DNA of 64,000 nt, taken from an uncultured bacterium. GTDB lineage: Bacteria; Planctomycetota; UBA1135; GCA-002686595. This document shows, one piece after another, positions 3,786 to 42,200 of the stretch (its first letter is position 1; each line of letters starts with the position of its first letter). Below the pieces are notes generated by a model, which saw nothing but the letters and a program-made list of their open reading frames with translations, was not told the DNA's origin and made no database searches. The stretch covers positions 448,001-512,000 of the forward strand of contig CALSNU010000002.1 in NCBI GenBank assembly GCA_943787795.1, read 5' to 3'. Position numbers and translations under genes: made by a program.

Positions 3786-3788
3786 GCC

Positions 3789-13712: not shown

Positions 13713-13725
13713 GTGTTCTCCTTGC

Positions 13726-16059: not shown

Positions 16060-16060
16060 A

Positions 16061-18215: not shown

Positions 18216-18221
18216 GATTGA

Positions 18222-19774: not shown

Positions 19775-19780
19775 GTTGGA

Positions 19781-20566: not shown

Positions 20567-20597
20567 GGTGCTTGGGTCGCTAGGTTCCTGCCCGGCC

Positions 20598-21293: not shown

Positions 21294-21305
21294 GCCGGTC
21301 CCTAC

Positions 21306-21320
21306 GCAAGCGCGATGCCA
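21306..21320 (-). promoter_or_regulatory. Sigma-54 (-24/-12) promoter of the flgF operon
   Basis: Minus strand TGGCATCGCGCTTGC, GG-N10-GC spacing. Confidence 0.7.
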
Positions 21321-21385
21321 ACCTCGCTCAGCACCCCTGAGGGCCGCTCGGCAGCCCCGACCGGGAAAGAACTTCCCGCCTTCGG

Positions 21386-22102: not shown

Positions 22103-22157
22103 GGGGAGACTCTAGCGAGACGCGCGGGTCAGGGCGCGGCATGGCGCTGATCAGGAA

Positions 22158-22192
22158 GCGGGGGCCGGGGCGCGTTGCGCTCCGACCCCCGC
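22158..22192 (-). terminator. GC-rich hairpin downstream of flgE
   Basis: gcgggggccggggcgc-gtt-gcgctccgacccccgc. Confidence 0.45.
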
Positions 22193-22234
22193 CCCATCCT
22201 CAGCTCCGGGCACCCTGGGGCACCCCGGCCCGGA

Positions 22235-24211
22235 TCAGACCAGGTTCACGGTCTCGGCGAGGACCTCATCCTGAGTGGAGACCACCCGGGCGTTGGCCTG
22301 ATAGCCGCGCTGAGCCTCGATCAGGCGCACGAACTGCTCCGCAGTATCGACGTTGGAGTTCTCCAGCGAGCCAGAGATCACCGCGCCCGCCTTCCGGATG
22401 TCGCCGGCGCCGTAGCGCGCCTCCCCGGAGTTGGGCGTCTCCTCGAACATGTTGTTGCCCGAGCTCCGTAGCCCCTCGTCGTTCTGGAACGTCACGACCC
22501 CCAGGGCCCCCAGGGCGCGCGACTGGCCGTTGGAGTAGAAGCCGTCGATCTGGCCGGTGGTCGAGACGGTGATGTTGGCGAGCTCGCCATCCCCGAACCC
22601 GTTCTGGTCGAAGACGTAGGCGGTCCCTGCGCTGCCAAACTGGGTCAAGCCGTCCACCGACCCGTCCGCTCCGAGGTTGACAGAGACCTCCTGGAGAGGC
22701 TGCCCTGTGAACTGGAGCTGCATCCGTGAGTCCACGGAGCCGAGGCCCGTGGGGGACCCATCCGGCGCAAAGGTGATCCCCGTGATCGGGTCCGCTGCGC
22801 TGCCTTTGCCGACCACTCCCTCGCTGGGATCCAGGTCGGCGTACAGGTTCCAGGTCAGGTCCGCCTGGCGCTCATAGCGCATGGTCACCGAGTGCGCCAC
22901 GCCAGCGGCGTCGTAGATCTCGGTGGAGGTCGTGACGGTGTCTGGCCCGGTCCCGTCGGTCGTGACCGACATCGCGTAAGCGCTGAAATCGGTCCCACCG
23001 GTGTTGGACGACCCGTCCGACATCGAGAGCAGAAGGTTCGCCTGGCCCGCGGTCTGAGCCGTCGCGACGAGGCGTCCGGAGCCGTCGACGGAGACCACCG
23101 CGTCCGTGTAGAGCGAGTCCAGGAAGCTCACGAGATCTTGCATCGTCGTGCCGTTGTTGACCGCACCGAAGGTGAAGGTCCCTGAGACCGGGCTACCGTC
23201 GGTGTCTTCACCGACGATCTGGATCTGGTCCCCGTTCACGTACTCCTTGAGGTTCGCCGTGAGGTCGTTCAGGTTCGCCGTGCTGAGGTCGCTCGGGATC
23301 GGGGTCTCCGTACCGGACTGAATGGTCGTGGAGAAGCCCACCATCTGCGTCAGGTCAGCCACGCCCGCCGGCGGGTTGAGGTCAACAGAGAACGAGCCGC
23401 CCTTGCGGTTCGTCGAGATCGCGATCTGCCCGGCCCCGTTCACGGTGGCCGTCACATCCTGCAGCGCGTTGATGGCTGCGGCGATGGAGGCAGAGGTCAC
23501 GTCCCCGGTGGTCGGGTCGCTCGACACGATCACCTGCTGGGGCACGCCGCCGTTGGCGATGAGCTCCATGGCGACGATGTCTCCCGGCGCCCCTCCCACG
23601 GACGAGACGTTGTAGGTCGCGCTCGTACCAGTACTTGCGATCTCAGCTGCCGTCCCCATGGAGAACGAGGAGTTGGCGGAGAGCAGCTCCGCCAGAGGGC
23701 CCTCGACCACCGCGGACAGGTTCCCCTTCATGGTCACGTCCGTGGTGACCTGCGGCGGGAAGAGCGAGGCCACATCAAGGGAAATGGCGGCGCCACTCGG
23801 GTTCAGAACCCGCATCCCCGAGCCCTGATCCACGAGGTTCTGCTGGGAGTCCAGACCGAAGGTCCCCACCCGGGTAAAGCTACGGCCCTCGCTACTCTCG
23901 AGCGCGAAGAAGCCCCCGCCCTCGAGGGCGAGGTCAAAGACGCGGCCCGTGTCGGAGAGCGCGCCCTGGGTGAAGGTCTGATCCACGCTGGCGAGGCCAA
24001 CGCCGTACCCGACCTGCATGCCATTGATCCCGCCGACGCCGCTCCGCGGACCGCTCGCGAACCTGAAGTTACGAGAGAAGTTATCCGCGAACACGGCGCG
24101 GCTCTTTTTGTAGCCGGGCGTGTTCTGGTTGGCGAGGTTGTTACCGATGACGTCGATCCACTGCTGGTGCGATCGCATCCCGGAGAGGGCGGAATAGAAG
24201 GATGAAGGCAT
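22235..24211 (-). CDS. flgE: Flagellar hook protein (enlarged)
   Basis: IGNNLANQNTPGYK, FTQG, FTRVG, LENSNVD, AQRGYQAN. Confidence 0.95.
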   Translation of the reverse strand: MPSSFYSALSGMRSHQQWIDVIGNNLANQNTPGYKKSRAVFADNFSRNFRFASGPRSGVGGINGMQVGYGVGLASVDQTFTQGALSDTGRVFDLALEGGGFFALESSEGRSFTRVGTFGLDSQQNLVDQGSGMRVLNPSGAAISLDVASLFPPQVTTDVTMKGNLSAVVEGPLAELLSANSSFSMGTAAEIASTGTSATYNVSSVGGAPGDIVAMELIANGGVPQQVIVSSDPTTGDVTSASIAAAINALQDVTATVNGAGQIAISTNRKGGSFSVDLNPPAGVADLTQMVGFSTTIQSGTETPIPSDLSTANLNDLTANLKEYVNGDQIQIVGEDTDGSPVSGTFTFGAVNNGTTMQDLVSFLDSLYTDAVVSVDGSGRLVATAQTAGQANLLLSMSDGSSNTGGTDFSAYAMSVTTDGTGPDTVTTSTEIYDAAGVAHSVTMRYERQADLTWNLYADLDPSEGVVGKGSAADPITGITFAPDGSPTGLGSVDSRMQLQFTGQPLQEVSVNLGADGSVDGLTQFGSAGTAYVFDQNGFGDGELANITVSTTGQIDGFYSNGQSRALGALGVVTFQNDEGLRSSGNNMFEETPNSGEARYGAGDIRKAGAVISGSLENSNVDTAEQFVRLIEAQRGYQANARVVSTQDEVLAETVNLV

Positions 24212-24271
24212 AAGACTACGTTTGGCTCAGGTGGTGGATTCGAAAGGAGGCGAGGCGCGGGCCGTCGTGGT

Positions 24272-24766
24272 TCAGAAGGACTCGCCGGAGCCCTCGCCTT
24301 CGCCTTCGTCCTCGCCGACGATCTCGTCCCCGTCACCGACCTCGCCGAGGACCTCGGCGACGCGGGCGAGGGGCACATCGATCCCGTCGATACCGAGGAA
24401 GATCTCGCCGTTCTGGACCCTCGCGGAGTCCACGGCGCCCTGGGCCATCTCACCCGAGACCGGGTCGAGATAGCCGACACGCTGGCCCACGAGGCCGCTG
24501 GCACCCGTGAGCTGGTCCATCAGGGCGTTGCCCTGCTGCAGGCGGGCCATGCCCACCAGGTTCTCATTCACGAGCTCCATCTGCTCCAGCGAGGAGAACT
24601 GCGCCAGCTGGGCGGCGAGCTCCTCATTCGACTGAGGCGACATGGGGTCCTGGTTCTGAAGCTGGGTGACCAGCAGCTGCGTGAACGCGTTCTTGTCGAG
24701 CTGCTGGTTGGCCGTCGCATTGGAGAAGCTCCGCTGCGCGTCCTGAATTCCGATTCCGTCAATCAT
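24272..24766 (-). CDS. flgD: Flagellar hook capping protein
   Basis: FTQLLVTQLQNQDPMSP, QLAQFSSLEQ. Confidence 0.94.
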   Translation of the reverse strand: MIDGIGIQDAQRSFSNATANQQLDKNAFTQLLVTQLQNQDPMSPQSNEELAAQLAQFSSLEQMELVNENLVGMARLQQGNALMDQLTGASGLVGQRVGYLDPVSGEMAQGAVDSARVQNGEIFLGIDGIDVPLARVAEVLGEVGDGDEIVGEDEGEGEGSGESF

Positions 24767-24792
24767 GGCTGCCTGCTGTTGTGGTTTGAGTA

Positions 24793-25962
24793 TCAGGCGG
24801 TGAGGTCCACACCGCCCTCGGCGGTGCGTGTAGCGAGTTGTTGGACGAGCGCCTCGGGGCTGGCGATGGGACTGGCCTCATCGCCGCTCTGGCCCCGGCG
24901 CGCACCGGAGTCCTGCCCGCGCTCGCCTTGTTCCGAGCGGGCCTGGGCGTCCGCTTCGGCGGAGGTCATCAGCCCGAGGTTGAGCTCCACGCTCTCCGCG
25001 CCGTCCCGACTCAGCCAGGCCCGAAGCTCGGGCGCATGGGCCTCAAGGACGGCCAGCGTCTCGGCGCTCTCGGCGGCGATGGACGCGTGGACGGCGCCCT
25101 GGTCGACCTTCACGTGGAGCCGCAGGCGGCCGAGGTCAACGGGGTTGAGGTTGATGGTGGCCTCTCGGTCGCCGCCCTGGATGCGCACCTTCAGCTGCTC
25201 GAGGATGGCCTCCGCGCGCTGCATGGAGGACGCGGGCTTGGCCGGCGCCGTCTTGTTCGTCGGTGCACCCGCGGCCGTCTCGACCCGGGTGCCCGCGGCG
25301 GTCGCAGCGGCGGGTGGGCGGTTGCCACCGGATGCCACCCCGGGCAGAGGCTGGCCCGTCCCAGGGGCCCTGAAGACCCCCGAGATCGCCGGCGCGGGTC
25401 CGGCAGAGGCCCCCATGGAGAGCGTCATCGGACCCGTAGGCTGCTGGGGCTGGGCCCCGAGGGTCGGGCCATAGGGCGCCTCGGTGACGTCCTCAGGCTC
25501 GATGGTCGAGCCCTGGGCGTCACTGGCGTCGGTCCACCCGGCGGCCTTCTCCTGACCGGAGAGCTTGCCGCCGTGGCGCCCGGAGGCTGCCTTCTGCCCG
25601 CCTCTGAACTCTGCGCTACGACGGCTCGACCCTGACTGTTCGGTGGCGCGGTCCGCCTGACGCGCGGCGTCATTGCGCTGGGCATCGGCCCGGGCGTCAC
25701 GCACCTGCTGATCATCTCTGACCGCCGACTCGCGGCGCCTGACCTGCTTGGCGGAGTCCGTTCGCCCATCACGAATGCGTGCGGCGACGTTGTCTTCCAC
25801 CTCTTCACGGGACCGTCGCGTCATCGTCGATCCTTCGGATGACTTCAGCTCCAGGTACTCCGAGAACCTCCCCGCGGCGGGCGATCCGCCTGGGCTACCC
25901 GCTCCAGGGGTGGTGGACGTGGGCGGCCGCTCCGTGCCGAGCGCCCGCCCTTCCATATCCAT
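24793..25962 (-). CDS. fliK: Flagellar hook-length control protein
   Basis: Low-complexity N-terminus; INLNPVDLGRL C-terminal domain; start placed downstream of the sigma-54 site. Confidence 0.85.
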   Translation of the reverse strand: MDMEGRALGTERPPTSTTPGAGSPGGSPAAGRFSEYLELKSSEGSTMTRRSREEVEDNVAARIRDGRTDSAKQVRRRESAVRDDQQVRDARADAQRNDAARQADRATEQSGSSRRSAEFRGGQKAASGRHGGKLSGQEKAAGWTDASDAQGSTIEPEDVTEAPYGPTLGAQPQQPTGPMTLSMGASAGPAPAISGVFRAPGTGQPLPGVASGGNRPPAAATAAGTRVETAAGAPTNKTAPAKPASSMQRAEAILEQLKVRIQGGDREATINLNPVDLGRLRLHVKVDQGAVHASIAAESAETLAVLEAHAPELRAWLSRDGAESVELNLGLMTSAEADAQARSEQGERGQDSGARRGQSGDEASPIASPEALVQQLATRTAEGGVDLTA

Positions 25963-26010
25963 GGAACGGAGATTCGAATGGGACTTCAAATACTCCATCG
26001 ACGGCCATGG

Positions 26011-26026
26011 AGCAATGGCCGTGCCA
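26011..26026 (-). promoter_or_regulatory. Sigma-54 (-24/-12) promoter of fliK-flgD-flgE
   Basis: Minus strand TGGCACGGCCATTGCT matches TGGCACG-N4-TTGC. Confidence 0.82.
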
Positions 26027-26098
26027 AGCGCGCCGCGGGGCCGCAGGCGAGGTCTCGGCCACAATCAGGTGGAAGACCTTTCCGGCCCCGGAAAGTCC

Positions 26099-28575: not shown

Positions 28576-31131
28576 ATGTCGCATCGATCCCCGATCCTGG
28601 CAGCTGCTGGGGCCTTGGGCCTCGCAGCGTGTGGAATGGAGGGCGTCTCGGTCTCAGGACCGGAGACGACCGTGGGCTTCGTCAGCAGCGCCTCGAGCCA
28701 CGGGGAAGACGACGGGGCTCTGTTCATCGCCGTCGAGCTGACCACGGACCTCAACGCGCTGCCCCAGCCGGTCTCCGTCACGGTCTCCGACGGCCTGTCC
28801 GGCTCTGCCACCAGCGGGGCCGACTACGTCCCGTTCGCCCCGATCGAGGCGTCCTTTCCCGCGGGCTCACTCAGCGGCGCGACGACCCTCGTCCAGGTCA
28901 CCGCCCTCGGAGACAACCTCGCCGAGGGAGCCGACGAGACCGTCCAGCTGGTCCTCACCGACGCGTCCGGGGCCACCCTCGGGAGCACCACCGAGACCCT
29001 GCTCAGCCTGACCGATGCCGAGAGCGCCGACGTGCGCTTCGTACAGCCCACGAGCCTCACGCCGGATGAGTCGCCGGCGAGCTACGACATGGACGTCGAG
29101 CTCGTCCTCTCCGCCGGAGCGACCCTCGCCTTTGACATCGACCTCGTCGCCGTGGACGGAGGCGCGGGGACGGCGACCTCCACTGCGGACTACCAGGCGG
29201 TCGCGCCAGCCGCGATCCAGTTCAGCGCGGGCACCCCCTCGGGGGCCACGCGCACCGTCACCGTGGACGTCCTCGATGACGCCCTCTCGGAGGGGCCGGA
29301 GACGGTCCGCCTGAGCCTCTCGGGGGCCGACCTCTCCCGGCTCACCCTGGCGGGGCCCGCCGAGCACGTGCTCACGATTGTCGACGACGAGGGAGCGCCC
29401 ACTCCCCTGTTCGGGGCGAGCCACGGGCCGACCACCGGGGTCGAGACCACCCTCGTGTCTGGAGACACCGTGGACCTCGGCACCATGCCCAACGAGGGCG
29501 GCGCGAGCGTCGGCACCCTCCTGGTCCTCGCGAACCAGGGCGGCGCGGACATGCTCCTCGGCCAGCCCACCTTCGGCGGGACGGACCCGACCGACTTCTC
29601 CCTGGAGATCGAGGCCGCCAGCTTCGAGAACGGCGAGATGGTCGTCGCGTCCATGTCCGCCCCAGGAGAGACCGTCGACCTGGCCGCGCCGTTCGTACGC
29701 GCCGCCGCCCTCGGCCCGCCCGCTGCCACGGCACGCCCCGGCGTCGAGGTGGCGGTGGACGCCGCCAGCCTCGCCGACCTGCAGTACTTCGACCACGTCC
29801 GCCTGCACGGCTTCCCCGTGCCCGGGGGCGGCGACGTCACCCTGGAGCTGGACCGGATTCCCCTGCCGATCACGAGAGACGCCGTGCTGGCCCTCGACGG
29901 CAGGCCCGTCTCGGGGGGCCTCCGGGCCGCGCTCGGGGACCTCTCGACCTGGAGCGGACGGGCCCTCGAGCTCCCCGGCAGCCGCGTCTTCCTCGCCCTG
30001 CGCGAGGCCGGCCCCGAGGGCTGGATCGAGCTGCCCTTCGAGGACGGGCGCTTCATTCACCTCACCACCGAGACCGCCGCCACCCCCGGAACCGCGGCCA
30101 CCTGTCGCCTCATTCACGAGGATGACCTGCTGGCCCTGGCGCCGGACGCCCGCCCGCCCCTGTGCAGCGGCATGGAGCTCCCGCCGGGCGCCCAGCTCCC
30201 CTCACAGCTGGCCTCCTTTGGCAGCGGCGGCGCGGCGCCCGGTGCCCTACCCGGTGCTCTACCCGGCGCTCTACCCGGTGACGGGGACCCGCCGACCTCG
30301 GGCCTCGTGACCGTCGCCACGTGCCGCCTCGCCATCGAGACCGACTGGCAGTTCTTCCAGAAGTTCGGGAACGCCTCCGACGCCACGGCCTACGTCACCG
30401 GCCTCATCGCCGCGATCAGCGACGTGTACTTCGAGCACGTCCAGACCACCCTCACGATCGCCTACATCGGCCTCCACTCCACCTCCGCCGATCCCTGGAC
30501 CGCGCCCGACGTCGGCGCCAGCGCCGGCGCGCTGCTGAGCGAGTTCCGCAGCAGCTGGAACAGCTCGGGGTGGCCCGTGTCTGCCGACCTCGCGCACTTC
30601 ATGTCCGGCGCGGACCTCGGCGGCGGCATCGCGTATGTGAACGTGCTGTGCAGCCCGAACTTCGCCTACGGGGTCAGCGGGAACATGAACGGCAACATTG
30701 ACTGGGGGACCTGGACCGGCAACCCCGGGAGCTTCACCTGGGACTTCGTGGTGGTGGCCCACGAGCTGGGGCACAACTTCGGCGCCGAACACACCCACGA
30801 GTACTGCCCGCCCATCGACACCTGCACCACCAACTGCACCGGCGGCACTGCCTGCAGCCTGGGCACGCTGATGAGCTATTGCCACTCCTGCGGCGGCATG
30901 AACAGCATCGACCTCCGCTTCCACCCGCAGGTCTCCAACATCATGCGGAGCCGGGTCGATGCCAGCTGCCTGGGCGACGCGACCATGCAGGCGGGGGATA
31001 CCATCCAGTACCGCCTGCGCTTCGCGCCCCGCAGCGGCGCGGGCGCGAAGAACGCCACCCTGGACGTGGGGCACGACGCGGCAAACGCGCCGTCGCCCTT
31101 CACGATCAACGTGACGGGCCTGGCCCAGTAG
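28576..31131 (+). CDS. Lipoprotein metzincin (M12B/reprolysin-like) metallopeptidase with two Calx-beta-like domains
   Basis: Lipobox LAAC; HELGHNFGAEH, Met-turn LMSY; Calx-beta-like ATSGADY..EGADET repeats. Confidence 0.85.
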   Translation: MSHRSPILAAAGALGLAACGMEGVSVSGPETTVGFVSSASSHGEDDGALFIAVELTTDLNALPQPVSVTVSDGLSGSATSGADYVPFAPIEASFPAGSLSGATTLVQVTALGDNLAEGADETVQLVLTDASGATLGSTTETLLSLTDAESADVRFVQPTSLTPDESPASYDMDVELVLSAGATLAFDIDLVAVDGGAGTATSTADYQAVAPAAIQFSAGTPSGATRTVTVDVLDDALSEGPETVRLSLSGADLSRLTLAGPAEHVLTIVDDEGAPTPLFGASHGPTTGVETTLVSGDTVDLGTMPNEGGASVGTLLVLANQGGADMLLGQPTFGGTDPTDFSLEIEAASFENGEMVVASMSAPGETVDLAAPFVRAAALGPPAATARPGVEVAVDAASLADLQYFDHVRLHGFPVPGGGDVTLELDRIPLPITRDAVLALDGRPVSGGLRAALGDLSTWSGRALELPGSRVFLALREAGPEGWIELPFEDGRFIHLTTETAATPGTAATCRLIHEDDLLALAPDARPPLCSGMELPPGAQLPSQLASFGSGGAAPGALPGALPGALPGDGDPPTSGLVTVATCRLAIETDWQFFQKFGNASDATAYVTGLIAAISDVYFEHVQTTLTIAYIGLHSTSADPWTAPDVGASAGALLSEFRSSWNSSGWPVSADLAHFMSGADLGGGIAYVNVLCSPNFAYGVSGNMNGNIDWGTWTGNPGSFTWDFVVVAHELGHNFGAEHTHEYCPPIDTCTTNCTGGTACSLGTLMSYCHSCGGMNSIDLRFHPQVSNIMRSRVDASCLGDATMQAGDTIQYRLRFAPRSGAGAKNATLDVGHDAANAPSPFTINVTGLAQ
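30240..30279 (+). repeat. 12-bp coding tandem repeat (GALP x3)
   Basis: ggtgccctaccc ggtgctctaccc ggcgctctaccc. Confidence 0.7.
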
Positions 31132-31145
31132 GGCTCACCGTCCGC

Positions 31146-31165
31146 GAGGCTCCGCGCGGAGCCTC
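31146..31165. terminator. Inverted repeat between the convergent peptidase and dsbD genes
   Basis: gaggctcc-gcgc-ggagcctc. Confidence 0.45.
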
Positions 31166-33749
31166 AGCGAGCCTCGAGGTCCTCGGTGACCACGGTCATG
31201 AACTCGACGAAGGGCGACCAGTCCTTGATGGTCCCACCCTTGAAGCGGCCGAGCTCCTCCTCGGAGGAGGGGTCCACCGCCACGTAGATGGGCTGGGCGG
31301 GGCTGCCCGCGAGGGTTTCGATCAGGCCCGCGATGCGCTCGCGGAGCGCGAGGTCGTGGGCGTCCGAGTGGAGCCGGGCCTCGACCCAGCGTTGCTTGAG
31401 GGCGCGGACTTCAGGCTTGGGGAAGATGGAGACCTCCATCTTGCGGCAGACCACTCATGTGTGGCCGGTGAAGTTCACCAGCACACCCAGCCCCCGTTCA
31501 CGCGCGACCCTGAGGGCCAGGTCGTAGTCGTCCACCACCACCAGCGAGCCTCCCTGTCGCTTCACTCCTGCGGGAAGGGCCTGGCTGCTGCCGCCGCTGA
31601 CGACCTCGGCCTTGTGGGTCTCCACGAGGCCCCGGGAGTACTCGGGAGGCGGCGCCATGGCCGACATGATCGTCTCGTCGAGGTGGTAACCGAGGACGCC
31701 CATGAAGCAGTAGGCGGAGCCGATCAGGGTGACCAGGCCGCCGCAGAGCCGGCCCGGTCCGATCTCCCCGTCCGGGGACTCGCCCTTCAGGTTGATGCGG
31801 CCGAACAGGTACATGGCCGCGGCGAGGCCGATGGCCGCCCACATCATCAGGAAGACCTCGCGCGGCAGCCAGCCGGCCTGCAGGGCGATGTCCGCGTTGG
31901 AGAAGAACTTCAGCGCCGCCGCGAGCTCCACGAAGCCCATGAAGACCTTGAGCGTGTTCATCCATCCGCCAGCGGAGGGGATCGCGCTCAGGCGGCTGGG
32001 GATCAGCGCCAGGACGACGAACGGCGCTGCCATGGTCGCGCCGAACACCCCCATGCCGATCACGATTCGCATCACGCCGCCGCTGGCGCCGGCGGCGATC
32101 AGGGTGCCGACGAAGGGACCGGTGCAGGTGAAGCTCGTGATCACCAGGGTCAGGCCCATGAGGAAGACCCCGTAGATCCCGCCCGTGCCGCTGGCCTTGC
32201 CCGCGGCACCCATGAGGAACTGGGGCGGGTTGAGCGTGATCGCACCGAAGAGCGCCAGGGCGAAGACCACGAACAGGACGCCGATGAACAGGTTCGTCAC
32301 GTAGTGCGTGGCGAAGGGCACCAGCAGGGGCCCGGCGAGGACCCCTAGCAGCACGAACATCAGCACGATCCCGAGCCCGTACACCGAGGCGAGCAGGAGC
32401 GCGTTGCCGCCCTTCTCGTCCGCCTGCTTGGTGAAGAAGGAGATCGTGATGGGGATCATCGGGTAGGTGCAGGGCATCAGCAGGGTGAAGAGCCCCGCGC
32501 CGATGGCCAGCAGGATGAACTCCAGCAGCCCGTCGCTCTCGGTCTCCTGGCCGAAGGAGCGCTTCTCGCCATCCTCCACCGGGGCCTCGATCGTGGGCGT
32601 CGACTCCGCCGCGCCGACGACCGCCCCGGCGTCGGTCTCGGTGTCGGTCTCGGCGTCAGTGCCAGTGCCAGTGCCAGTGCCACTACCGGCATCGGGAACA
32701 GCGCCAGGTTCCGTGGCTGCCCCTGCGCCGCCGCTGGCCGCCTGCGGGAGCGTCCATGTGGCGAAGGCCGCCGCGAACAGTGCGTCCGAGCCGGACCCCA
32801 CGACCTCGATGCCGGAGAATTTCACCGGGAGGCAGGCGCCGTCGTCGCAGGACTGGCCGTCGAGGCCAATCTCCAGGTCACCCGGATCGAAGTCGTCGAA
32901 GGCTTCACCGCGGAGGGCGAAGTGGAAGAGGCCCTCGTGGGCCCAGAGCCAGACCTCCTTCGAGTCCGGGTCTTGGGGGTCCTTCTCCTCCTGGACGTAG
33001 CGGAAGGGCTCGGGATACTGAACCTCGTCCTCCCAGTCCACGTTGCCGCCCTCGACGGTGACGGTGGTCGGGGTCCCGATCCCCGGACCCATGTCCTCGG
33101 CGGTGGGGCCGTGGTACATGTGCCAGTGCTCCGGCGTCGCCACCTGCACCACGAGCTCGACGATCTCGCCGTCGTCCCCGTCAAGCACCCTCGCGAACGC
33201 CCGCGCCGCCGCCGCCTCGTCGCCGAAGTCAGGGCTCCAGGTCAGCGGGTCCTCCTCGGGCTCGGCCAGCAGCGACTCGGGGAAGCCCTCCCAGACCGAC
33301 TCCGGCCCAGCCCCGAGGGTCGCGAGGTCCTCCTCAAAGGGGAGGCACTGGTTCTCGTCGCAGACCTGCCCCTCGACGAAGGCGCTGATCGCCCCGGCGT
33401 CCACGCCGGCGGCCGCGGCGCCCCGAGCGGCGGCGAACAGGTAGGTCTTCTTGTCGAAGACGCGCGCCGGCCCGTAGCCCTCGTCCGGCTTCACCTTGGG
33501 CTCGGGGTACCAGACCTCGGTCCACGCTGCGCCCTCAAGCTCCCCGGGGGTCACCGTGGTCGGCAGCCCACCGACCTCGCTGGGGTCCCCCTGGTCATAG
33601 ACCCAGCAGCCGAAGGACGGCCGGACCTGAACGGCCATGAGCACGTCGTCCCCGACGGCCTTCGAGAACAGCTTGACCTTGACGGACTGGGCGCTCGCGG
33701 GTGCAAGGGCCGAGAGTGCGACGAGGAGGAGAGTGAGGAGTCGAGACAT
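31164..33749 (-). CDS. dsbD: DsbD-type protein-disulfide reductase, probable selenoprotein (in-frame TGA at 31455-31457, UxxC)
   Basis: Signal peptide; two Cx4C N-domains; transmembrane PCTYP and CTGP; thioredoxin domain NFTGHT-TGA-VVCRKME continues in frame to 31164. Confidence 0.88.
31423..31442 (-). promoter_or_regulatory. Candidate bacterial SECIS hairpin of dsbD
   Basis: Starts 12 nt after UGA: AAGAUGGA-GGUC-UCCAUCUU, perfect 8-bp stem with a G-initiated loop. Confidence 0.7.
32630..32686 (-). repeat. Coding microsatellite linker in dsbD (GTGTGTGT, TDAE/TDTE)
   Basis: About four gtgcca copies plus gtcggtctcg repeats. Confidence 0.6.
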
Positions 33750-34858: not shown

Positions 34859-37435
34859 CTAACACTGGCTGAACCCGCAGGAGTGGCACATCACGCAGCC
34901 CTCCTCGAACGAGATCCCGCCCTCACACTGGGGGCACTTGACCTTGTAGCGCTCGGCGTCGTTCACCTTCGCGCCCGAGGAGCGCTTCTGGTTCGGCTCG
35001 CCGTCAAGCTCTTCGGCGGACACGCGCCCGAGCAGGAGCGCCTCGAGGCCGTGCGCGTCCTTGGCGGTCTTGTAGCGATGCAGCGCGGTCGCGAGGCCGT
35101 CAGCGAGGGACATGATCCGCCCGTCCTTGGTCGGAACCGAGAGGCTGGAGCCGATCCCGGAGAGCTGGGAGACGGCCTTCTCGAGGCTGCCGTTGGAGCG
35201 GAGCCAGAGCGAGAGGATGCGACAGATGGCCTCGAGGTCCGAATTCGCCACGTCGCCGCCCTTGCCGAGCTGCGCGAAGACCTCGCGCTCGAGCCCGCTC
35301 CGCGGATCAACGGACACCTTCACGTGCATGTTGCCGAAGGGCGTCATCTGCCGGATCCGCAGGGACGGCATGATCTCCGGCAGGCGGACGGGGTCGAGCT
35401 GGGCTCCCCCTTGGATGACTTCGGCGGCAGGAGTCGGGTGTGCGGTCCCGGCCCCCGCCGCGTCAGTCGCCATCCCTCCCGTGGGACGGTCGGCGCCCTT
35501 GAGCGCCATGGGCTGCATGTCACGGCAGCCGTCGCGGTACACAGTGACACCTTTCACGCCCATGTCGACAGCCATGTCGTAGATCTGTCGAACATCCTCG
35601 ACGCTGGCGGACTTGGGGAAGTTGATCGTCTTCGAGATCGACGCGTCGCAGTGCCGTTGGAAGGCGGCCTGCATGCGCATGTGCCACTCGGGCGAGATGT
35701 CGTGCGCCGTCACGAACAGGCGTTGGTCCGCCTTGGGGATGTCGTCAAGGTGGGCGATGGTGCCGTCCGCGAGGATCTTCTCCACAAGCTCGCTCGAGAA
35801 GTACCCGGCAGCCTCCGCCGCGCGCTCGAAGACCTCGTTGACCTCGCGCATGACGGTGGGCTTGCCGTCCGCGTCCTTCATGATCTGGCGCTCGAAGGCG
35901 AGGCTGAACATGGGCTCGATGCCCCCAGAGCAACCGGCGATGATGGAGATCGTCCCCGTCGGCGCGATCGTCGTCGTGTAGCTGTTCCTGAGGCGTTTTC
36001 CCAGTGCCTCGAACTCGGAACCTTCCCAGGCCCCGAAGACGCCGCGCTCCTCGGCCAAGACCTCCGAGGCGAGGTGTGACTCCTCGTTGAGCACCCTCAT
36101 GATCTCCTCGCCGAAGGCGCACGCCTCCTGGGAGTCGTACGGCAGCCCGAGGGAGTAGAGGGCGTCAGCGAAGCCCATGACTCCGAGACCAATGCGCCGG
36201 GTCGAGCGGGACATCTCAGCGATCTCCCGTAGGGGATACTCGTTCACCTCGATGACGTCATCGAGGAAGCGCGTGCAGGTGTGGATGACCTCGCGGTACG
36301 CCTCCCAGTGGAAGGTCGACGTGGACGCGCCCGTCGCCTCGTCCGTGCCAGGGATCACGAAGCGGCCGAGGTTGATCGACCCCAGGTTGCAGGAGTCCCA
36401 GGCGTGCAGGGGCTGCTCCCCGCAGGGGTTGGTCGCCTCGATCTGCCCGACATTCTTGATCGGGTTGGTGGCGTTGATGCGGTCGATGAAGACAACGCCC
36501 GGCTCACCGGAGGCGTGGGCATGCTCGACGATCGAGCCCCAGAGGTCACCCACGGTGCAGGCTGCCCCGTCGCGCTCCAGGGCCGACCAGTCGCCGGTGA
36601 GGGGATCGAGCACCTGGTGGACAGCGCTCGGGTCCGCCCTCAGCTGCTCCATGAAGCGATCCGTCACCGCCACGCTGACGTTGAAGTTGTTCAGCTTCGA
36701 CCGGTCGTCCTTGCAGACGATGAAGTCCGCGATGTCCGGGTGATCGACCCGCAGGATGCCCATGTTCGCGCCCTTACGGAACGCGCCCTGCTGGATGGAG
36801 TCCGACGCCTTGGAGAAGACGTCCATGAACGTGAGGGGGCCCGCGCCCTGGCCGCCAGAGCTCTTCACGAGGCGCCCTGCCGGGCGGACCTTTGAGAAGT
36901 TGAAGCCCGTACCGCCGCCGGCCTTCTGGATCAGGGCGGTGGCCTTGACGGACTCGTAGATGCCCTCCACCGAGTCCGGCACAGGGAGCACGAAGCACGC
37001 GGAGAGCATCCCGCTCCCGCGGCCCGCGTTGGTGAGGCAGGGGCTGTTCGGGAGGAACATCCGCTGGCTCATGAGCGTGTAGAAGTCCCTGGCGACCTCG
37101 AGGGCCTCCTCCGGCTCCGCGTCGAACTTCACCTCAGCCCCGGCGACGGTGCGCGCCACGCGCCAGAACATCTGGCGCGGGGTCTCGTCGAGCTCTCCGT
37201 CCTCGCCGCGGATCAGGTAGCGACGCTCGAGCACCTTCAGCGAGTTCTCGCCGAGGTCCGGGTCCGGCAGATCCGCAGGGGGATCAATGCCTCCGAGGAG
37301 CGCCCCGGCGTCCTCCGCGTCTCGCGTCTCACCGGCGGGCTCCGAGGTCTCCGCGCCGTCAGTGACGGCGCTCACTCCGGTGGCCTCAAGGTCGTGCTGG
37401 AGAAGGTCGGCTGCGTGCGGCTGCGTCGAGGTCAC
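34859..37435 (-). CDS. nrdJ: Adenosylcobalamin-dependent (class II) ribonucleotide reductase with TSCPD-like domain and Zn ribbon
   Basis: PNSP, LSACFV, ATNPCGEQ, TIAPTGTIS, C-terminal CPQC..CHSCGFSQC; start approximate (GTG 37435). Confidence 0.93.
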   Translation of the reverse strand: MTSTQPHAADLLQHDLEATGVSAVTDGAETSEPAGETRDAEDAGALLGGIDPPADLPDPDLGENSLKVLERRYLIRGEDGELDETPRQMFWRVARTVAGAEVKFDAEPEEALEVARDFYTLMSQRMFLPNSPCLTNAGRGSGMLSACFVLPVPDSVEGIYESVKATALIQKAGGGTGFNFSKVRPAGRLVKSSGGQGAGPLTFMDVFSKASDSIQQGAFRKGANMGILRVDHPDIADFIVCKDDRSKLNNFNVSVAVTDRFMEQLRADPSAVHQVLDPLTGDWSALERDGAACTVGDLWGSIVEHAHASGEPGVVFIDRINATNPIKNVGQIEATNPCGEQPLHAWDSCNLGSINLGRFVIPGTDEATGASTSTFHWEAYREVIHTCTRFLDDVIEVNEYPLREIAEMSRSTRRIGLGVMGFADALYSLGLPYDSQEACAFGEEIMRVLNEESHLASEVLAEERGVFGAWEGSEFEALGKRLRNSYTTTIAPTGTISIIAGCSGGIEPMFSLAFERQIMKDADGKPTVMREVNEVFERAAEAAGYFSSELVEKILADGTIAHLDDIPKADQRLFVTAHDISPEWHMRMQAAFQRHCDASISKTINFPKSASVEDVRQIYDMAVDMGVKGVTVYRDGCRDMQPMALKGADRPTGGMATDAAGAGTAHPTPAAEVIQGGAQLDPVRLPEIMPSLRIRQMTPFGNMHVKVSVDPRSGLEREVFAQLGKGGDVANSDLEAICRILSLWLRSNGSLEKAVSQLSGIGSSLSVPTKDGRIMSLADGLATALHRYKTAKDAHGLEALLLGRVSAEELDGEPNQKRSSGAKVNDAERYKVKCPQCEGGISFEEGCVMCHSCGFSQC

Positions 37436-37578
37436 GTGGTGTGGACTGGGCTTGGGACTCTTCGTCAACGTCGCCCCATCAGGCACGGGTGCCGACCTGC
37501 GCCCATGATTCTCGCCAGCGGCTTCCGTTGCAAGGGGGGGCCTTCCATCGAGTGCCTCCAGCCCGCGAAGCGCCGGCT

Positions 37579-39375
37579 CTACCCGCGCCCAGGCCGGAGT
37601 CGATCCAGCACCTTCTTGCTGATCGCTCGAACGTCCTCGATCCCCAGCACGAGGGCCGCTCCCAGGTAGGCCCCGCCGCCCGCGCCGATGGCCAGGAAGA
37701 GCGCCAGGGCGGGTCCGAGCACATCGTCGAGCGCCTGCTCGACGGCGCCTGCGGCGACGCCCGAGACGGCAGCGGCCGCGAGGATCCTGGGCAGCGCATG
37801 CCTGAAGGGCACATCGCTCTTGGGGAGCCCGAGGAGACGCGAGAGGCCAGGAAGTAGCATCGCGACGTTGAGGGCGCTCGTCACCGCCGTCGCCGCGGCC
37901 AGCCCCTCCACGTCCATGCCCAGCCCCACGAGGAAGAGCACGTTGAGCAGTCCGTTGAGCACGAGCATCGCGGCGGAGACCTTCACCGGTGTGGAAAAAT
38001 CCCCAACCGAGTAGTAGGTGCGCGCCACGAGGCCCGTGGCGCCGGCCGGGACGATGGCGAAGCAGAGCGCCTTCAGAGCACGGGTGGTCCGATCCACACC
38101 CTCCGGGCCGAAGGCCCCGTGCTCGAAGGAGACCTCCACCACCGGCCTCGCGAGGACGAACAGCCCCACAGCCGCCGGCAAGGCCACCGCGGCGATGGCG
38201 AGGTGCGTGCGGTCGTGCAGCCGGCGCAGGGCCGCCAGCTCCCGACGGTGCCCAAGCTGCTGGAGGGCCGGGAACACGGCGCTGGTGGCGGCGATCGCCA
38301 CCAGCGCGAGGGGGAACTGCTGGACGCGGTTGGCGTAGTAATGGGCCGTGGGGCCGCCGTTCGAGAGCAGGCTCTCGGCCATCAGCCCGTCCACCATCAC
38401 GTTGATCTGGTAGACCGCCGCTCCGAGGGCCAGGGGCGCCGAGCGACGCAGGACCTCTCCGGGGCCGGCAGCTCCCTCCGGGAGGGCACTCAAGCCTCCA
38501 GGGCGCCCCAGGAGCCCCGCTGCGCGCAGCGCCGGCCACTGGATCAAGAGCTGCACGACGCCAGCCATCAGCAGGCCCCAGGCGAGCCAGCGGGCCATGG
38601 CCATGTGCCGCTCCACGTCGGCCATGCTCTCAGCACCGTACTCCGACCTGTCCCCCCATCCGAAGTGCCACGCGATCACCAGCAGCGTGGCGATCCAGGC
38701 GAGATTCATGGCCGCCGGCGCGAACGCGGGCGCTCCGAACTTGCCCCGTACGTGAAGTGCTCCGGTCACCAGGGAGGAGAGGCAGACCAGCACAAGGAAG
38801 GGCATGACCCGGATCGTGAGGTCCCGCACCGCGTCAGGGTCCGCCCCCAGCCAGGACCACTCCGTCCCCGGCAGCTGATCGGGGGCCATCGAGACGGCGG
38901 CCATGACCAGGAGGCTCAGGATGAAGGACACCACCATCAGCAGCCCGAGCGTCTTGCGGAACAGGACCGCTCCCGCGGGCTCTCCGTGGCTCTCATCCAC
39001 CTCGGTCAGAGCCGTCTGAAAGCTCACGGCCAGGGCGCCCTCCCCGAGGAAGCGCCGGAAGAGGTTGGGCACGCGGAACGCGGTCAGGAACGCGTCGAAG
39101 ACGCCTGAGGTGTCCCCGAAGAGCGCCGCCGCCAGCATCTCGCGCGCGTATCCGAGCACGCGGCTCACCAGCGTCAGGCTCGACACCAGCGCCGCGCGGA
39201 GCCCCAGTCGACGGTGCCGATCAGGCGGCCTCGAGGGCTCGGGGTGGGGGTCGATCTCGGGGCGTTCCAAGGGCGCAGCGCTCGGTGGATCCCCGGTGTC
39301 CCCGCGCGCCCGATGGATCAGGAGCGCGGGGAGGTGCCGCCGAGGGAAGCGAGGCCGCTGAAGGTATCGCGTCAC
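37579..39375 (-). CDS. murJ: Lipid II flippase (start uncertain)
   Basis: SRVLGYARE, DAFLTAFRVPNLFRRFLGEGAL, YYANRVQQFP. Confidence 0.93.
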   Translation of the reverse strand: MTRYLQRPRFPRRHLPALLIHRARGDTGDPPSAAPLERPEIDPHPEPSRPPDRHRRLGLRAALVSSLTLVSRVLGYAREMLAAALFGDTSGVFDAFLTAFRVPNLFRRFLGEGALAVSFQTALTEVDESHGEPAGAVLFRKTLGLLMVVSFILSLLVMAAVSMAPDQLPGTEWSWLGADPDAVRDLTIRVMPFLVLVCLSSLVTGALHVRGKFGAPAFAPAAMNLAWIATLLVIAWHFGWGDRSEYGAESMADVERHMAMARWLAWGLLMAGVVQLLIQWPALRAAGLLGRPGGLSALPEGAAGPGEVLRRSAPLALGAAVYQINVMVDGLMAESLLSNGGPTAHYYANRVQQFPLALVAIAATSAVFPALQQLGHRRELAALRRLHDRTHLAIAAVALPAAVGLFVLARPVVEVSFEHGAFGPEGVDRTTRALKALCFAIVPAGATGLVARTYYSVGDFSTPVKVSAAMLVLNGLLNVLFLVGLGMDVEGLAAATAVTSALNVAMLLPGLSRLLGLPKSDVPFRHALPRILAAAAVSGVAAGAVEQALDDVLGPALALFLAIGAGGGAYLGAALVLGIEDVRAISKKVLDRLRPGRG

Positions 39376-39439: not shown

Positions 39440-42031
39440 TCACGGACAGAAAGTGATCTCGAGGCCGTCCGAGAAGTTGAAGCCCGAGCCGCCCACGTCC
39501 CTGAGCCAGAACTGGAAGTTCCAGGTCTCGCCGTTCGCGATCGCGACGGGCAGCGTGGGGAAGTCCAGGGCGTACGACGCCGCGCCTGCCGGGTCGGTCT
39601 GGACCACGGGGAGGCGCTGGAACGCGCCCCCGATGCAGATCGAGCCGTTGCCCACCTGGACCTGGTCCCGGCCCTGGCCGTAGAAGAACAGCCCGAAGCC
39701 CGACGGGTTCGCGTCGGCGACCGTCAGGGACAGCTGGTTCAAGGTGACGTCGGTGGACCCCGTGGCCCCCATGAATGCGCCAGCGGTCCACTGGTTGGGG
39801 GACAGCACGCAGTAGTTCTCAGGCTGAGGGCAGCCCGGATCCGTGGCCTCCACGCGCACGTCGTCCACCGCCGCCTCGACGATGGAGCCGCTGCCGAGAT
39901 CCGACGCGACGAAGCGCACCCTCACCTGGTCGGTCAGCGCCACGTACGCGCCGATGTCCACCGAGGCCTCGATCCACCCCCCGGACGTTCCGGCCCCCGT
40001 GGGCCCCACGACCTCGGCGCTGGTCCAGCTCACGCCACCATCGTCGGAGAGGTCCACGTTGAACACGTCGGCGCCCGGCGATGCGCCCTCGTCGTTCGAG
40101 TACCAACGCACGTACCGCAGGGTGGCTGTCGCCGAGCCGTCGAGGTCGAAGAGGGGAGAGAACAGCGCCGTGCTGCCGCCGTCCACGTCGTTCTCACCAA
40201 GGCCTCCGCCCACGCTCCCCTGGCCCGTGAACCAGCAGCGAGTGCCAGGACTCGGCGAGTTGTCGTTCTCCGGCTGCGCGGCGGTCCCGATCGGGTCCGC
40301 CCGGGTCCACTCCCCCGTGGTCGCGTTGTTCGGCGACCCGACGGTCCAGCCCTGGTCGCCCGCTGCCTCGAAGTCGTAGGCCGCGACCACGCGCACGCCC
40401 ACCGTCAGCTGACCGTCGAGGACCTCGGCTCGGCCCCCCTCGGTGATGGTGACCGTGAAGTTCACGACCTCGCCCACGGGCGTCGAGGGGTCGAGGAGCA
40501 GCTGGAGCGGAGCCGCGCCCGTCCCAGTGGTGAAGGACGGCACCAAGAGGGAAGACTGGGCCGTGGTCACCGTCGCAAACGGGCTCGAGGTGGCGAGGTC
40601 GATGGTCGCCGCTGCCGAGTCCCCGCGTCCGGAGTTGCGCACGAAGGCCGAGACGTCCACGGGCTCGCCCGGCTCGAAGGACCCATCCCCGTCGCCGGCA
40701 TCCGTCACCGTGACCGCCTCGGGCCGGAGCCAGGCGCCCGCCGCGAGCACGGTGCGGGCGAAGCTGGTGAGGTTCTCCTCCGCCAGGGGCACGATCCTGT
40801 TCTGCAGCGGCCAGAAGCCGTCGTTGCCGTTCCCGATCTCGGGGGTCCAGCCGTAGGTGCCCTTGACCCCGTACTCGTAGTCGAACGTGACGCCGTCCGC
40901 CTGGTAGAGGACGATCGAGGCTGGACCGTGGACGTAGCCGTTGTCCGCCACCGCGAGGTCGCCGATCTCACCGATCTCGTCCCAGTCGGGCGGGTACTGG
41001 GTCACGTAGCCCCACGGCGCGAGCCACAGGTCGGAGAAGGTGTGCACCGACAGGGAGGTCTCGAACTCCCGACTGTTGATGAATTGGACCATGGCCTGGA
41101 CCTCCGGCTCGGACGCCGGCGCAGTCCCCCGATACGTCTCCGAAGAGCCGGATCCGCTGGAGCCCGATCCACCCCACTGGAAGGGGTAGTTCCGGTTGAG
41201 GTCCACCCCGGTGCTGCCGCCGTTGCTGCGGCGGTTCTTGCGCCACAGGCCGCCGCCGACGGGGTCGGTCAGGCGATTGAACTCGTAGCCGTCCGGGTTC
41301 ACGCAGGGCACCACGTAGATCTCGCGCTCGTCGAGGAGATAGGTGGCCACGGGGTCGCTGCCGTACTCCTCGAGCAGGTAGCAGAGGAAGTAGAGGGTCG
41401 TCTGCATGCCCATGGGCTCGCGCGCATGGTGCAGCGCGTCGATGCGCATCTCCGGCTCGGGCTCATCCACGCCGGGGTTGTCGGACACCTTCACCATCCA
41501 GAGGTCTCGGCCCTGGAGTGACTGCCCGATGGAGGACTTGGCGGAGACGAACTGGGGGTACGCCGCCGTGAGCTGATCGAGGACCGAGACGACCTCGGCA
41601 AAGGTGTAGTACCCCGACATCGAGCCCTGCCCGTAGGGCGGGTTGAGCCACTGGCCGTACCCCACCCCGGCGTTGTCCTCGGAAGCGCCAGCGGTGAGCC
41701 GCCGCGCGTAGTACCCCGCGAGGTCCTCGATGAGCACCTCCGGCGTGAGCCGAACCCCGCGGATCTGTTCCATCTGCTCGTCGGTGACCAGCAGGGTCGC
41801 CTCGCCGCCCGCGAGGTCCACCGACACCAGATCGAGGTCCAATCGCTGCAGCCGCAGGAGTCCCATGGGGTCCGAGCTCACCTTGACCAGGTGCTGGACC
41901 GTGCCCAAGCTCACCGGGACGGGAACCGCGGGGGCTGCGTCGAGGGGCGCGAGCTCAGGGCCGACGCCTCCCTGGGGCGTGACGGCAGGGGAGAGGGCGA
42001 GCAGGGAGGCGGTCAGGATGGCGATCGTCAT
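39440..42031 (-). CDS. Secreted M14 zinc carboxypeptidase (carboxypeptidase T-like) with C-terminal accessory domains
   Basis: Signal peptide; HHARE, NPDG, WRKNR, DLNRN, SVHT, TPE. Confidence 0.88.
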   Translation of the reverse strand: MTIAILTASLLALSPAVTPQGGVGPELAPLDAAPAVPVPVSLGTVQHLVKVSSDPMGLLRLQRLDLDLVSVDLAGGEATLLVTDEQMEQIRGVRLTPEVLIEDLAGYYARRLTAGASEDNAGVGYGQWLNPPYGQGSMSGYYTFAEVVSVLDQLTAAYPQFVSAKSSIGQSLQGRDLWMVKVSDNPGVDEPEPEMRIDALHHAREPMGMQTTLYFLCYLLEEYGSDPVATYLLDEREIYVVPCVNPDGYEFNRLTDPVGGGLWRKNRRSNGGSTGVDLNRNYPFQWGGSGSSGSGSSETYRGTAPASEPEVQAMVQFINSREFETSLSVHTFSDLWLAPWGYVTQYPPDWDEIGEIGDLAVADNGYVHGPASIVLYQADGVTFDYEYGVKGTYGWTPEIGNGNDGFWPLQNRIVPLAEENLTSFARTVLAAGAWLRPEAVTVTDAGDGDGSFEPGEPVDVSAFVRNSGRGDSAAATIDLATSSPFATVTTAQSSLLVPSFTTGTGAAPLQLLLDPSTPVGEVVNFTVTITEGGRAEVLDGQLTVGVRVVAAYDFEAAGDQGWTVGSPNNATTGEWTRADPIGTAAQPENDNSPSPGTRCWFTGQGSVGGGLGENDVDGGSTALFSPLFDLDGSATATLRYVRWYSNDEGASPGADVFNVDLSDDGGVSWTSAEVVGPTGAGTSGGWIEASVDIGAYVALTDQVRVRFVASDLGSGSIVEAAVDDVRVEATDPGCPQPENYCVLSPNQWTAGAFMGATGSTDVTLNQLSLTVADANPSGFGLFFYGQGRDQVQVGNGSICIGGAFQRLPVVQTDPAGAASYALDFPTLPVAIANGETWNFQFWLRDVGGSGFNFSDGLEITFCP

Positions 42032-42200
42032 AGGTGCTGGACGGCACGTCCAAGGGTTGGGTTCCTGCACAAGCATGGGAACGCGGAACCAATGGCGCAG
42101 CCGAGGACGCCTGCACCGACAGCGACGTCTCGAAACAGCGCCTCTCCCCGCTCCCCCTCACGCGGTCCCGGGCCATCACCCGCTAGCCCCCCCCTGGGGA

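Follow-up and report, generated by a model that had tools for sequence, protein, structure and literature searches.

A probable selenocysteine in the gamma domain of a DsbD-type electron relay of Planctomycetota, with a candidate SECIS element at different positions among relatives

We analyzed a 64,000-nucleotide stretch of an uncultured marine planctomycete genome (positions 448,001 to 512,000 of contig CALSNU010000002.1, assembly GCA_943787795.1; hereafter the window), which carries on its minus strand a gene of the DsbD family of thiol-disulfide electron relays. An in-frame UGA at codon 765 of this gene is very probably decoded as selenocysteine (Sec) within one inner-membrane relay protein of 861 amino acids (aa), where it takes the attacking position of the C-terminal thioredoxin-like (gamma) domain. 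The gene is a variant of two known things, DsbD and SelB-dependent recoding, and the recoding is ordinary in kind. Because the apparent stop most likely encodes Sec, gene callers shorten the protein.

The open reading frame (ORF) 33749..31455 (minus strand) starts with the ATG at 33749, and its 764 aa end in NFTGHT directly before the TGA at 31457-31455, which takes the first place in a thioredoxin x-x-C motif. Past this TGA the frame reads VVCRKME and is open for 96 codons in all, until the TGA at 31166-31164 (Table 1). An earlier note on this DNA had described this end and this continuation, and both were recovered in the ORF list and the read-through translation; its estimate of a single protein of about 860 aa with a UxxC motif comes close to the length obtained here. 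The G+C content at third codon positions is 0.92 upstream and 0.94 downstream of the UGA. In the Pfam searches, Thioredoxin_7 was scored solely on the read-through product (27.2 bits, cut-off 27), and each ORF by itself gave no match, so that the domain match is restored by reading through.

The UGA is conserved well beyond this genome. A search of 61 genomes gave matches in 52, and the best match contained one TGA in 46 of the 52; the top loci from relatives had TGA at exactly this column, followed by x-x-C, in 30 of 30 cases, and relatives that are 93-95% identical over the gamma domain include Planctomycetota entries. When the class was searched, 174 of 201 genomes matched, with one TGA in 123 of the 150 matches listed (38 further matches lie outside these 150). 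In a sample of the phylum, 127 of 251 genomes matched, many with TGA. Of 135 rows with the motif, we excluded from the counts 10 whose fetched stretch lacked a membrane-domain motif; two loci gave no motif. In the resulting set of 125 genomes, from which the gene was extracted together with its membrane domain and in which cysteine (Cys) forms are oversampled, the codon is TGA in 97 and TGC or TGT in 28, never TAA or TAG (0/125), and Cys occurs at +3 in 125/125. The pairing of TGA with Cys that the earlier note had suggested looking for in homologs is thus present, and the TGA is kept across the class and the phylum, where a lack of conservation would have spoken against the note's proposal. 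The 97 TGA forms comprise 70 from five families of the class and 27 from 21 other families (26 Planctomycetota families), and 80-115 open codons follow the UGA in 95 of them. We found selA in 59 of the 61 genomes and selB in 30 of 31.

We built trees with FastTree on all 125 rows and with IQ-TREE on 50 rows picked from these, masking the Sec column and the next 18 residues. The Cys forms sit singly within Sec clades, with at least 15 changes, a pattern that reads most simply as repeated change from Sec to Cys. One genome (G022) has a Cys-form DsbD, yet keeps selA and a UGA-containing ArsC-like gene; therefore, the change is specific to the gene. Asparagine at the position of E. coli Asp455 is found in 83 of 97 Sec forms and 11 of 28 Cys forms. 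Co-evolution of this residue with Sec is not claimed, because Cys forms nested among Sec forms keep the asparagine. Among the best 120 database homologs, 69 stop immediately ahead of this codon and the other 51 run to full length with Cys; U occurs in none. The truncated ones are often named CcdA or hypothetical; the earlier note had expected standard annotation to split the gene or call it a pseudogene. A protein search that started from a Cys homolog labelled Acidobacteriota named no truncated form outside the Planctomycetota, most of its rows being nameless.

The genome encodes selA (456.6 bits), selB (327.9) and selD (327.2), each above its curated cut-off, together with a tRNA-Sec with a UCA anticodon (selC; 69 bits on the tRNA-Sec model, gathering threshold 47), so that the missing machinery that would have told against the earlier note was not encountered. 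This tRNA-Sec is the only tRNA with a UCA anticodon at the ARAGORN default threshold, and a relaxed ARAGORN run for such tRNAs gave noise only. In addition, selD itself carries an in-frame TGA. Its hairpin loop lies 32 nucleotides (nt) after the UGA, near the far limit of the consensus range given below. The selA and selD genes are adjacent (G000:C5:184589-187201), and selB (C1) and selC (C3) lie elsewhere.

The read-through protein has the features of the DsbD class: an alpha domain with a Cys pair (here in two copies), an eight-segment membrane (beta) domain with two Cys, and a gamma domain, here as UxxC. The redox pairs are C130/C135, C301/C306, C427/C542 and U765/C768; in the gamma domain, Asn759 occupies the position of E. 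coli Asp455, and Pro820 the usual position of the cis-Pro loop. In an AlphaFold model built on an 82-row alignment (mean predicted local distance difference test score, pLDDT, 84.8), the chain forms two beta sandwiches, a linker that is disordered, a membrane domain made of helices and an entire thioredoxin fold, in which residue 765 directly precedes helix 766-775. A model made without an alignment was set aside (mean pLDDT only 40). Structures of E. coli nDsbD were among the Foldseek matches, as was 3f9u, the gamma domain of a Bacteroides-type DsbD (TM score 0.71, root-mean-square deviation, rmsd, 2.1). The latter is the closest solved structure and shares the FTG..C..CRKME and AQP.YV motifs, but has Cys where the window protein would have Sec; in the sequence alignment with it (E 5e-10), its first Cys falls on U765. 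The top Foldseek row was an N-domain of an ScsB protein, but at an rmsd of 19.

E. coli DsbD (PMC2631958, PMC3322552) shares the domain order, one redox pair per domain and the Ig-like alpha fold, and in its gamma domain the attacking residue is also the first of the thioredoxin motif. The window protein differs in having two alpha domains, Sec in place of Cys461 and asparagine in place of Asp455. It scores 91.8 bits on the E. coli-type subfamily PRK00293 (NCBIfam), where the cut-off is 330. The ScsB class is marked by a lysine eight residues after the first membrane Cys (PMC3322552), and this lysine is absent, position 435 being threonine, invariant in the 82 rows. Given that the score is far under the PRK00293 cut-off and the ScsB lysine is missing, Bacteroides-like DsbD with a doubled alpha domain is the best name on the sequence evidence. 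The DsbD assignment of the earlier note holds, refined by the second alpha domain and by the placement in this branch instead of the E. coli type. As a separate observation, DsbD homologs with two gamma-like domains occur at L175 (genome G324), L190 (G272), and L145 and L215 (G040 and G048). In G324, both gamma-like domains have TGA at the motif, about 530 codons apart; G040 and G048 have Cys in both, and G272 has two matches in one frame.

A hairpin with a perfect 8-bp Watson-Crick stem follows the UGA (-9.3 kcal/mol for a 36-nt piece), and its place 12 nt past the UGA and its GGUC loop are as the earlier note had described. The E. coli fdhF selenocysteine insertion sequence (SECIS) also has a GGUC loop, and the FdhA gene of this genome has a GGUCU loop 18 nt after its UGA. 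The bacterial SECIS consensus has a loop of 3-9 nt that begins with G[G/U], lies 16-37 nt from the UGA and has a minimum free energy of -7.5 or lower (PMC13188914; the same distance range in PMC10778597). The window hairpin agrees with this consensus in all four respects, whereas most relatives have a GGUC loop at 44 nt, beyond the range. Within the class, the GGU-loop hairpin is at 20 nt in 17 genes, all of the window's genus, at 44 nt in 47, and at neither distance in 6; it is thus present in 64 of 70 TGA forms and in none of 21 Cys forms. Phylogenetically independent TGA/Cys pairs were concordant, with the hairpin on the TGA side, in 6.7 cases and discordant in 0 (median sign-test p 0.016). 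Across the 17 genomes of the genus, 94% of cells are paired, and 3 of 8 pairs show two-sided changes. The earlier note's proposal of a SECIS element holds in that the hairpin agrees with the consensus and covaries; what does not carry over to the family is a fixed position.

Among the remaining 53 Sec genes of the class, 87% of cells are paired under a two-hairpin structure, compared with 80.6% when shuffled and at most 64% when slid; the set includes the 6 genes without the hairpin, and both controls leave relatedness in. Two-sided changes occur in 4 of the 5 pairs of the distal hairpin and in 3 of the 6 of the proximal one. The distal GGUC loop fixes one valine codon in 51/51 carriers, whereas the Cys forms of the class use four valine codons there. 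In the trees, the window's genus forms a single clade (support 100/99), and its sister group (100/100) is a genus of the 44-nt type. A member of that sister genus (G169) carries both GAUC at 20 nt and, at 44 nt, GGUC, a single base away from the window's state, and the distal hairpin is lost in 17 of 17 members of the genus that gained GGUC at 20 nt. We read these sequences as a probable relocation of the SECIS, in which an existing nearer stem would have gained a SelB-type loop and the distal hairpin would then have decayed. Since the backbone of the class is unresolved and 20-nt types also occur outside the class (GGUC in G428; related loops in f83 and f88), we confine this claim to the step from 44 to 20 nt at the base of the genus.

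There is another way to read these hairpins, which concerns the SECIS only: a nearer hairpin with a variable loop, at about 23 nt, would be the functional element in the relatives and the GGUC loop at 44 nt an accessory, so that no true relocation took place. We regard this as possible but doubtful. The nearer helix does covary (the same 3 of 6 pairs, with 90.9% paired), a consensus-window hairpin of -5 kcal/mol or better occurs in 27 of 51 genes of the 44-nt type versus 8 of 28 Cys forms, and an alternative long lower stem fits most sequences of that type. However, the loop of the nearer hairpin varies freely, and 7 of the 51 genes have no nearer hairpin at all, while the distal loop is invariant and restricted to its single valine codon and the distal hairpin vanished from the genus whose nearer loop became GGUC. 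The ArsC-like gene also goes against it: in all 30 of its loci, a hairpin is conserved at 48-51 nt, and none is in the consensus window. A reading that concerns the use of the UGA is that both products are used, the 764-aa CcdA-like form at low selenium and the full relay when selenium is present, which would make the UGA a selenium switch. This modifies the proposed decoding rather than excluding it, and we consider it rather unlikely. The truncated product would retain six upstream redox Cys and the entire membrane domain, CcdA alone partly supports growth of an scsB mutant (PMC3322552), and a fallback form would be valuable because the DsbD gene is the sole family member found; against this, the half-domain tail of the truncated form would probably be degraded, and several lineages switched to Cys instead.

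Readings in which no Sec is made at all fare much worse. If the UGA were a true stop, the product would be a CcdA-like alpha-alpha-beta protein, and the 96 codons a relic or a small ORF restarting at GTG. TGA is indeed the main stop here, ending 1919 of the 2290 long coding-like ORFs, a GTG directly follows the UGA, where the ORF finder lists a 96-aa ORF, and there are CcdA-only proteins, which can take the place of ScsB in Caulobacter (PMC3322552). Yet a start codon after the UGA is lacking in 46 of the 97 TGA forms, termination there would take away the first strand and helix of the fold along with the attacking residue, TAA and TAG never occur at the column and the hairpin is lost where the codon is Cys, which leaves a true stop very improbable. 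Equally improbable is that an alternative code or a special tRNA reads the UGA as cysteine or tryptophan. Cys insertion would yield a working enzyme, given that the column is Cys in homologs, and UCA-anticodon tRNA-Cys species are known in some bacteria, but the UCA-anticodon tRNA of this genome scores as tRNA-Sec and the FdhA, SelD, PrdB-like, SelW-like and ArsC-like selenoproteins use the same codon. Because TGA is the dominant stop, there is no reassignment of the code 4 or 25 kind. Finally, the genome is a metagenome assembly, and the TGA could be an error for TGC or TGT, an outcome the earlier note had named as decisive. DNA contigs of runs X2 (31242-32659, one differing letter elsewhere) and X5 (31402-33737, no differing letter), from two other studies, cross the codon unchanged, and an RNA contig of X15 (31404-31646) bridges it; these are assembled contigs rather than raw reads. 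With the same codon in 96 other genomes as well, the chance of such an error is negligible. RNA contigs cover the DsbD gene, and expression itself is not inferable from them, the comparison lacking a silent-stretch control.

Several points weigh against decoding as Sec and against what we build on it. Selenium in the DsbD protein is a prediction from the sequence. Two genomes have the TGA together with gaps in the machinery: G003 (78% complete) gave no selA or selB match, and G029 (83% complete) no selA match. The stability of the hairpin is near that of shuffled sequences (folding z-scores -1.2 to 0.0), and 15 of 2351 TGA-ended coding-like ORFs have a hairpin of at least 8 bp with a G[G/U] loop 16-37 nt downstream; the hairpin rises above chance because it is conserved, the top 30 loci all having TGA at the column. 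The GGU-loop hairpin is missing from both the 20-nt and the 44-nt position in 28 of 97 TGA forms, 6 of them within the class and 22 elsewhere, although 19 of these 28 form a different hairpin in the consensus window, at -5 kcal/mol or better. With the genome at 85% completeness, a second DsbD or CcdA gene could have been missed. The substrates and the direction of electron flow are taken from homology only.

The DsbD gene is the sole PF02683 match in the genome, which has no PF13386 match, and exactly one PF02683 match was found in 58 of the 61 genomes. When weaker second matches from six genomes were scanned for the motif, only one gave a motif, and no general Cys backup gene emerged. As this is the only DsbD/CcdA-family gene found, envelope reduction would depend on selenium. 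From known SelB biology, SelB with Sec-tRNA would bind to the loop's G-U, just 3' of the UGA, and deliver Sec during membrane insertion of the protein. In E. coli DsbD, electrons pass from thioredoxin to the beta, gamma and alpha domains and on to envelope substrates (PMC2631958, PMC3322552). By analogy, cytoplasmic thioredoxin would reduce Cys427/Cys542 of the membrane domain, and these in turn a U765-C768 selenenylsulfide in the periplasmic gamma domain. The selenolate would then attack the disulfide of either alpha domain (130/135 or 301/306), and from the alpha domains the electrons would go to thioredoxin-like proteins of the envelope, for use in cytochrome c maturation and oxidative repair. 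The exported TlpA/ResA-like proteins encoded in this genome, several of which have an in-frame UGA-x-x-C, are candidate substrates; a cytochrome c assembly protein is also present. Sec has a pKa of about 5.2 and is ionised at neutral pH. In the simplest reading, it may serve as a faster, always-ionised nucleophile for two alpha domains and many exported clients. With confidence only a little above even, we propose for much of the Planctomycetota that the sole envelope reducing conduit is an unannotated selenoenzyme feeding exported selenoproteins, which would make envelope redox and cytochrome c maturation selenium-dependent, that non-consensus distal SECIS elements (44-51 nt) serve at least two genes, and that the SelB loop moved 24 nt closer in the window's genus via a two-hairpin intermediate.

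Sec in a domain of this kind has already been proposed in print. The 2008 Global Ocean Sampling (GOS) survey reported 22 read-derived 'Trx-like 2' UxxC sequences (PMC2398784), which share with the window protein, at a loose domain level, a predicted Sec in the UxxC of a DsbD-gamma-like domain, and one of them, judged by eye, resembles a DsbD-gamma fragment of a proteobacterium, with U. The available set differs in consisting of mixed fragments, mostly small exported thioredoxins with repeat tails, none with a membrane domain or NFTG..U..CR.ME. The 'thiol:disulfide interchange protein' family (PF13098, WP_011366075.1) shares the name and a UxxC in a thioredoxin fold; WP_011366075.1 is soluble, about 190 aa long and without a DsbD membrane or alpha domain (PMC12013277, deep-Sep supplement). 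By eye, the supplement sequences represent a small soluble thioredoxin with a helical tail, an architecture that the window protein does not have. TsoB (NF045694), a selenoprotein resembling a rhodanese/DsbD fusion, shares only the DsbD-type membrane domain: the window protein scores 105.6 against a cut-off of 805, over the membrane part alone, and has one Sec, in UxxC, whereas TsoB is listed among rhodanese-like forms, and with two Sec, in UxxxxU. A full-length DsbD with Sec in the gamma domain is absent from Table 1 (119 families) of a 2026 review; the primary paper on TsoB (Haft and Tolstoy 2025) may bear on novelty. Word searches of the literature gave no description of a Sec-DsbD, DsbD is not in the main text of PMC12013277, and none is named in the available passages of PMC1794560, PMC1088965 and PMC5029168. 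A planctomycete genome paper reports two split 'thiol-disulfide isomerase-like thioredoxin' candidates without SECIS (PMC4807772). The available BSepDB text (PMC13326102) does not mention DsbD, and the database itself could list such genes under a thioredoxin label.

We also surveyed other selenoprotein genes of the genome. A genome-wide scan for TGA followed by a GGUC hairpin (at least 5 bp) returned 341 hits, most of which were not in frame, and we dropped it as a detector; a dicodon model was used instead and gave 185 candidates, of which 17 were picked by hand for family searches. FdhA, AhpD-like, ArsC-like and SelW-like genes were recovered above their cut-offs, together with a PrdB-like gene. 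The ArsC-like gene (L203, G000:C4:534702-535250, plus strand; NF041106 above cut-off) has TGA in 40 of 40 matches from the 61 genomes searched. In 30 of 30 of its loci (L221-L250), at least 5 pairs form a stem whose CG(U/G)GA loop lies 51 nt after the UGA, or 48 nt in one locus; the stem shows two-sided changes, and these 30 loci have no conserved hairpin in the consensus window. As a distal SECIS candidate, this gene supports distal recognition as a second case. Four TlpA/ResA-like genes have UGA-x-x-C (L193, L197, L206 and L207, at C4:789281, C1:189639, C6:69085 and C1:576619) and N-terminal hydrophobic stretches resembling signal peptides; L197 resembles, by eye, one GOS 'Trx-like 2' read. 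A further gene (L201, G000:C6:580988-582637, plus strand) encodes an exported protein whose DsbD_N domain stands alone. Its in-frame TGA precedes Ile-Cys, and the G-rich loop of an 8-bp hairpin lies at 23-24 nt; the protein has no NCBIfam match and is a possible undescribed selenoprotein. Another (L195, G000:C4:265189-265986, minus strand) encodes a lysine-rich exported protein with two in-frame TGA 80 codons apart, coding-like on both sides, and a CGUGA-loop hairpin 21 nt after the second, without a Pfam or NCBIfam match. In L194, L196 and L208 (C2:619320, C1:989221 and C2:427086), a UGA stands beside Cys (U-C, C-U and C-x-U, respectively) without a selenoprotein family match; L194 has FG-GAP repeats.

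These findings matter for annotation, as a core envelope-redox protein is shortened in public databases across a large part of the phylum. The interest of the case lies in this phylum-wide reach, in the apparent sole conduit of envelope reductant and in the distal and relocated SECIS elements. In E. coli DsbD, Cys461 has a pKa of 10.5, raised by Asp455, which guards against stray oxidation, and D455N lowers it to 9.3 (PMC2631958, PMC3322552). Sec would reverse this low-reactivity design, which introduces the questions of what lets a selenolate persist in an oxidising compartment and what keeps the electron flow directional; natural sister pairs of Sec and Cys forms are on hand for comparison. 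A 2026 database gives a canonical SECIS for 87.4% of bacterial selenoprotein entries (PMC13326102), which leaves the remaining entries unexplained, and the covarying hairpins at 44 and 48-51 nt, with the natural shift from 44 to 20 nt, are test cases for the reach of SelB. One truncated homolog (P0015) belongs to the named strain 'Planctomycetes bacterium Poly30', which we take to be a cultured isolate; since the truncated homolog is known from a named strain, proteomics looks feasible.

Table 1. Coordinates in the window of the DsbD-type gene, its protein domains and the hairpin
Feature	Position	Strand	Basis and remarks
Whole gene, inferred 861-aa DsbD-type selenoprotein	31164..33749	-	ATG 33749 to TGA 31166-31164; single in-frame UGA, codon 765
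Probable signal peptide, residues 1-20	33690..33749	-	judged by eye; helix 2-19 in model
First DsbD-alpha (Ig-like) domain, residues ~23-145, Cys130/Cys135	33315..33683	-	PF11412 28.9 bits (whole protein); beta-sandwich in model; Foldseek nDsbD 1l6p, 1jpe, 1vrs
Second DsbD-alpha domain, residues ~181-318, Cys301/Cys306	32796..33209	-	C306 invariant and C301 nearly so in 82 rows; model
Acidic G/T-rich low-complexity linker, residues ~339-400	32550..32735	-	pLDDT <50; sequence
Membrane (beta) domain, residues ~408-685, eight hydrophobic segments, Cys427 and Cys542	31695..32528	-	PF02683 76.6 bits; both Cys invariant (82 rows); hydropathy
Gamma thioredoxin domain, residues ~729-861, U765-x-x-C768	31167..31565	-	PF13899 after read-through only; 3f9u alignment; Foldseek
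In-frame UGA, inferred selenocysteine 765	31455..31457	-	read-through frame, conserved column, contigs of other studies
SECIS-like hairpin, 8-bp stem, GGUC loop 31434..31431	31423..31442	-	starts 12 nt, loop 20 nt after UGA; covariation in genus

The neighbours of the DsbD gene are unrelated to it, being a secreted protein gene on the opposite strand and a hypothetical gene. By inspection only, the plus-strand gene at 28576-31131, tail to tail with the DsbD gene, encodes a large exported protein with a HELGH zinc-metallopeptidase-like motif at its end. Inspection of the translations elsewhere in the window revealed a flagellar cluster at 12297-26064 (minus strand; hook, hook cap, hook-length control, rod, ring and hook-associated proteins), a class II ribonucleotide reductase-like gene at 34859-38539 (minus strand) and, by inspection only, a large exported carboxypeptidase-like protein at 39440-42076 (minus strand). 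A weak cytochrome c assembly-type match (PF01578, below cut-off) lies at 2805-5039 (plus strand) and immediately precedes a glutamyl-tRNA reductase-like gene.

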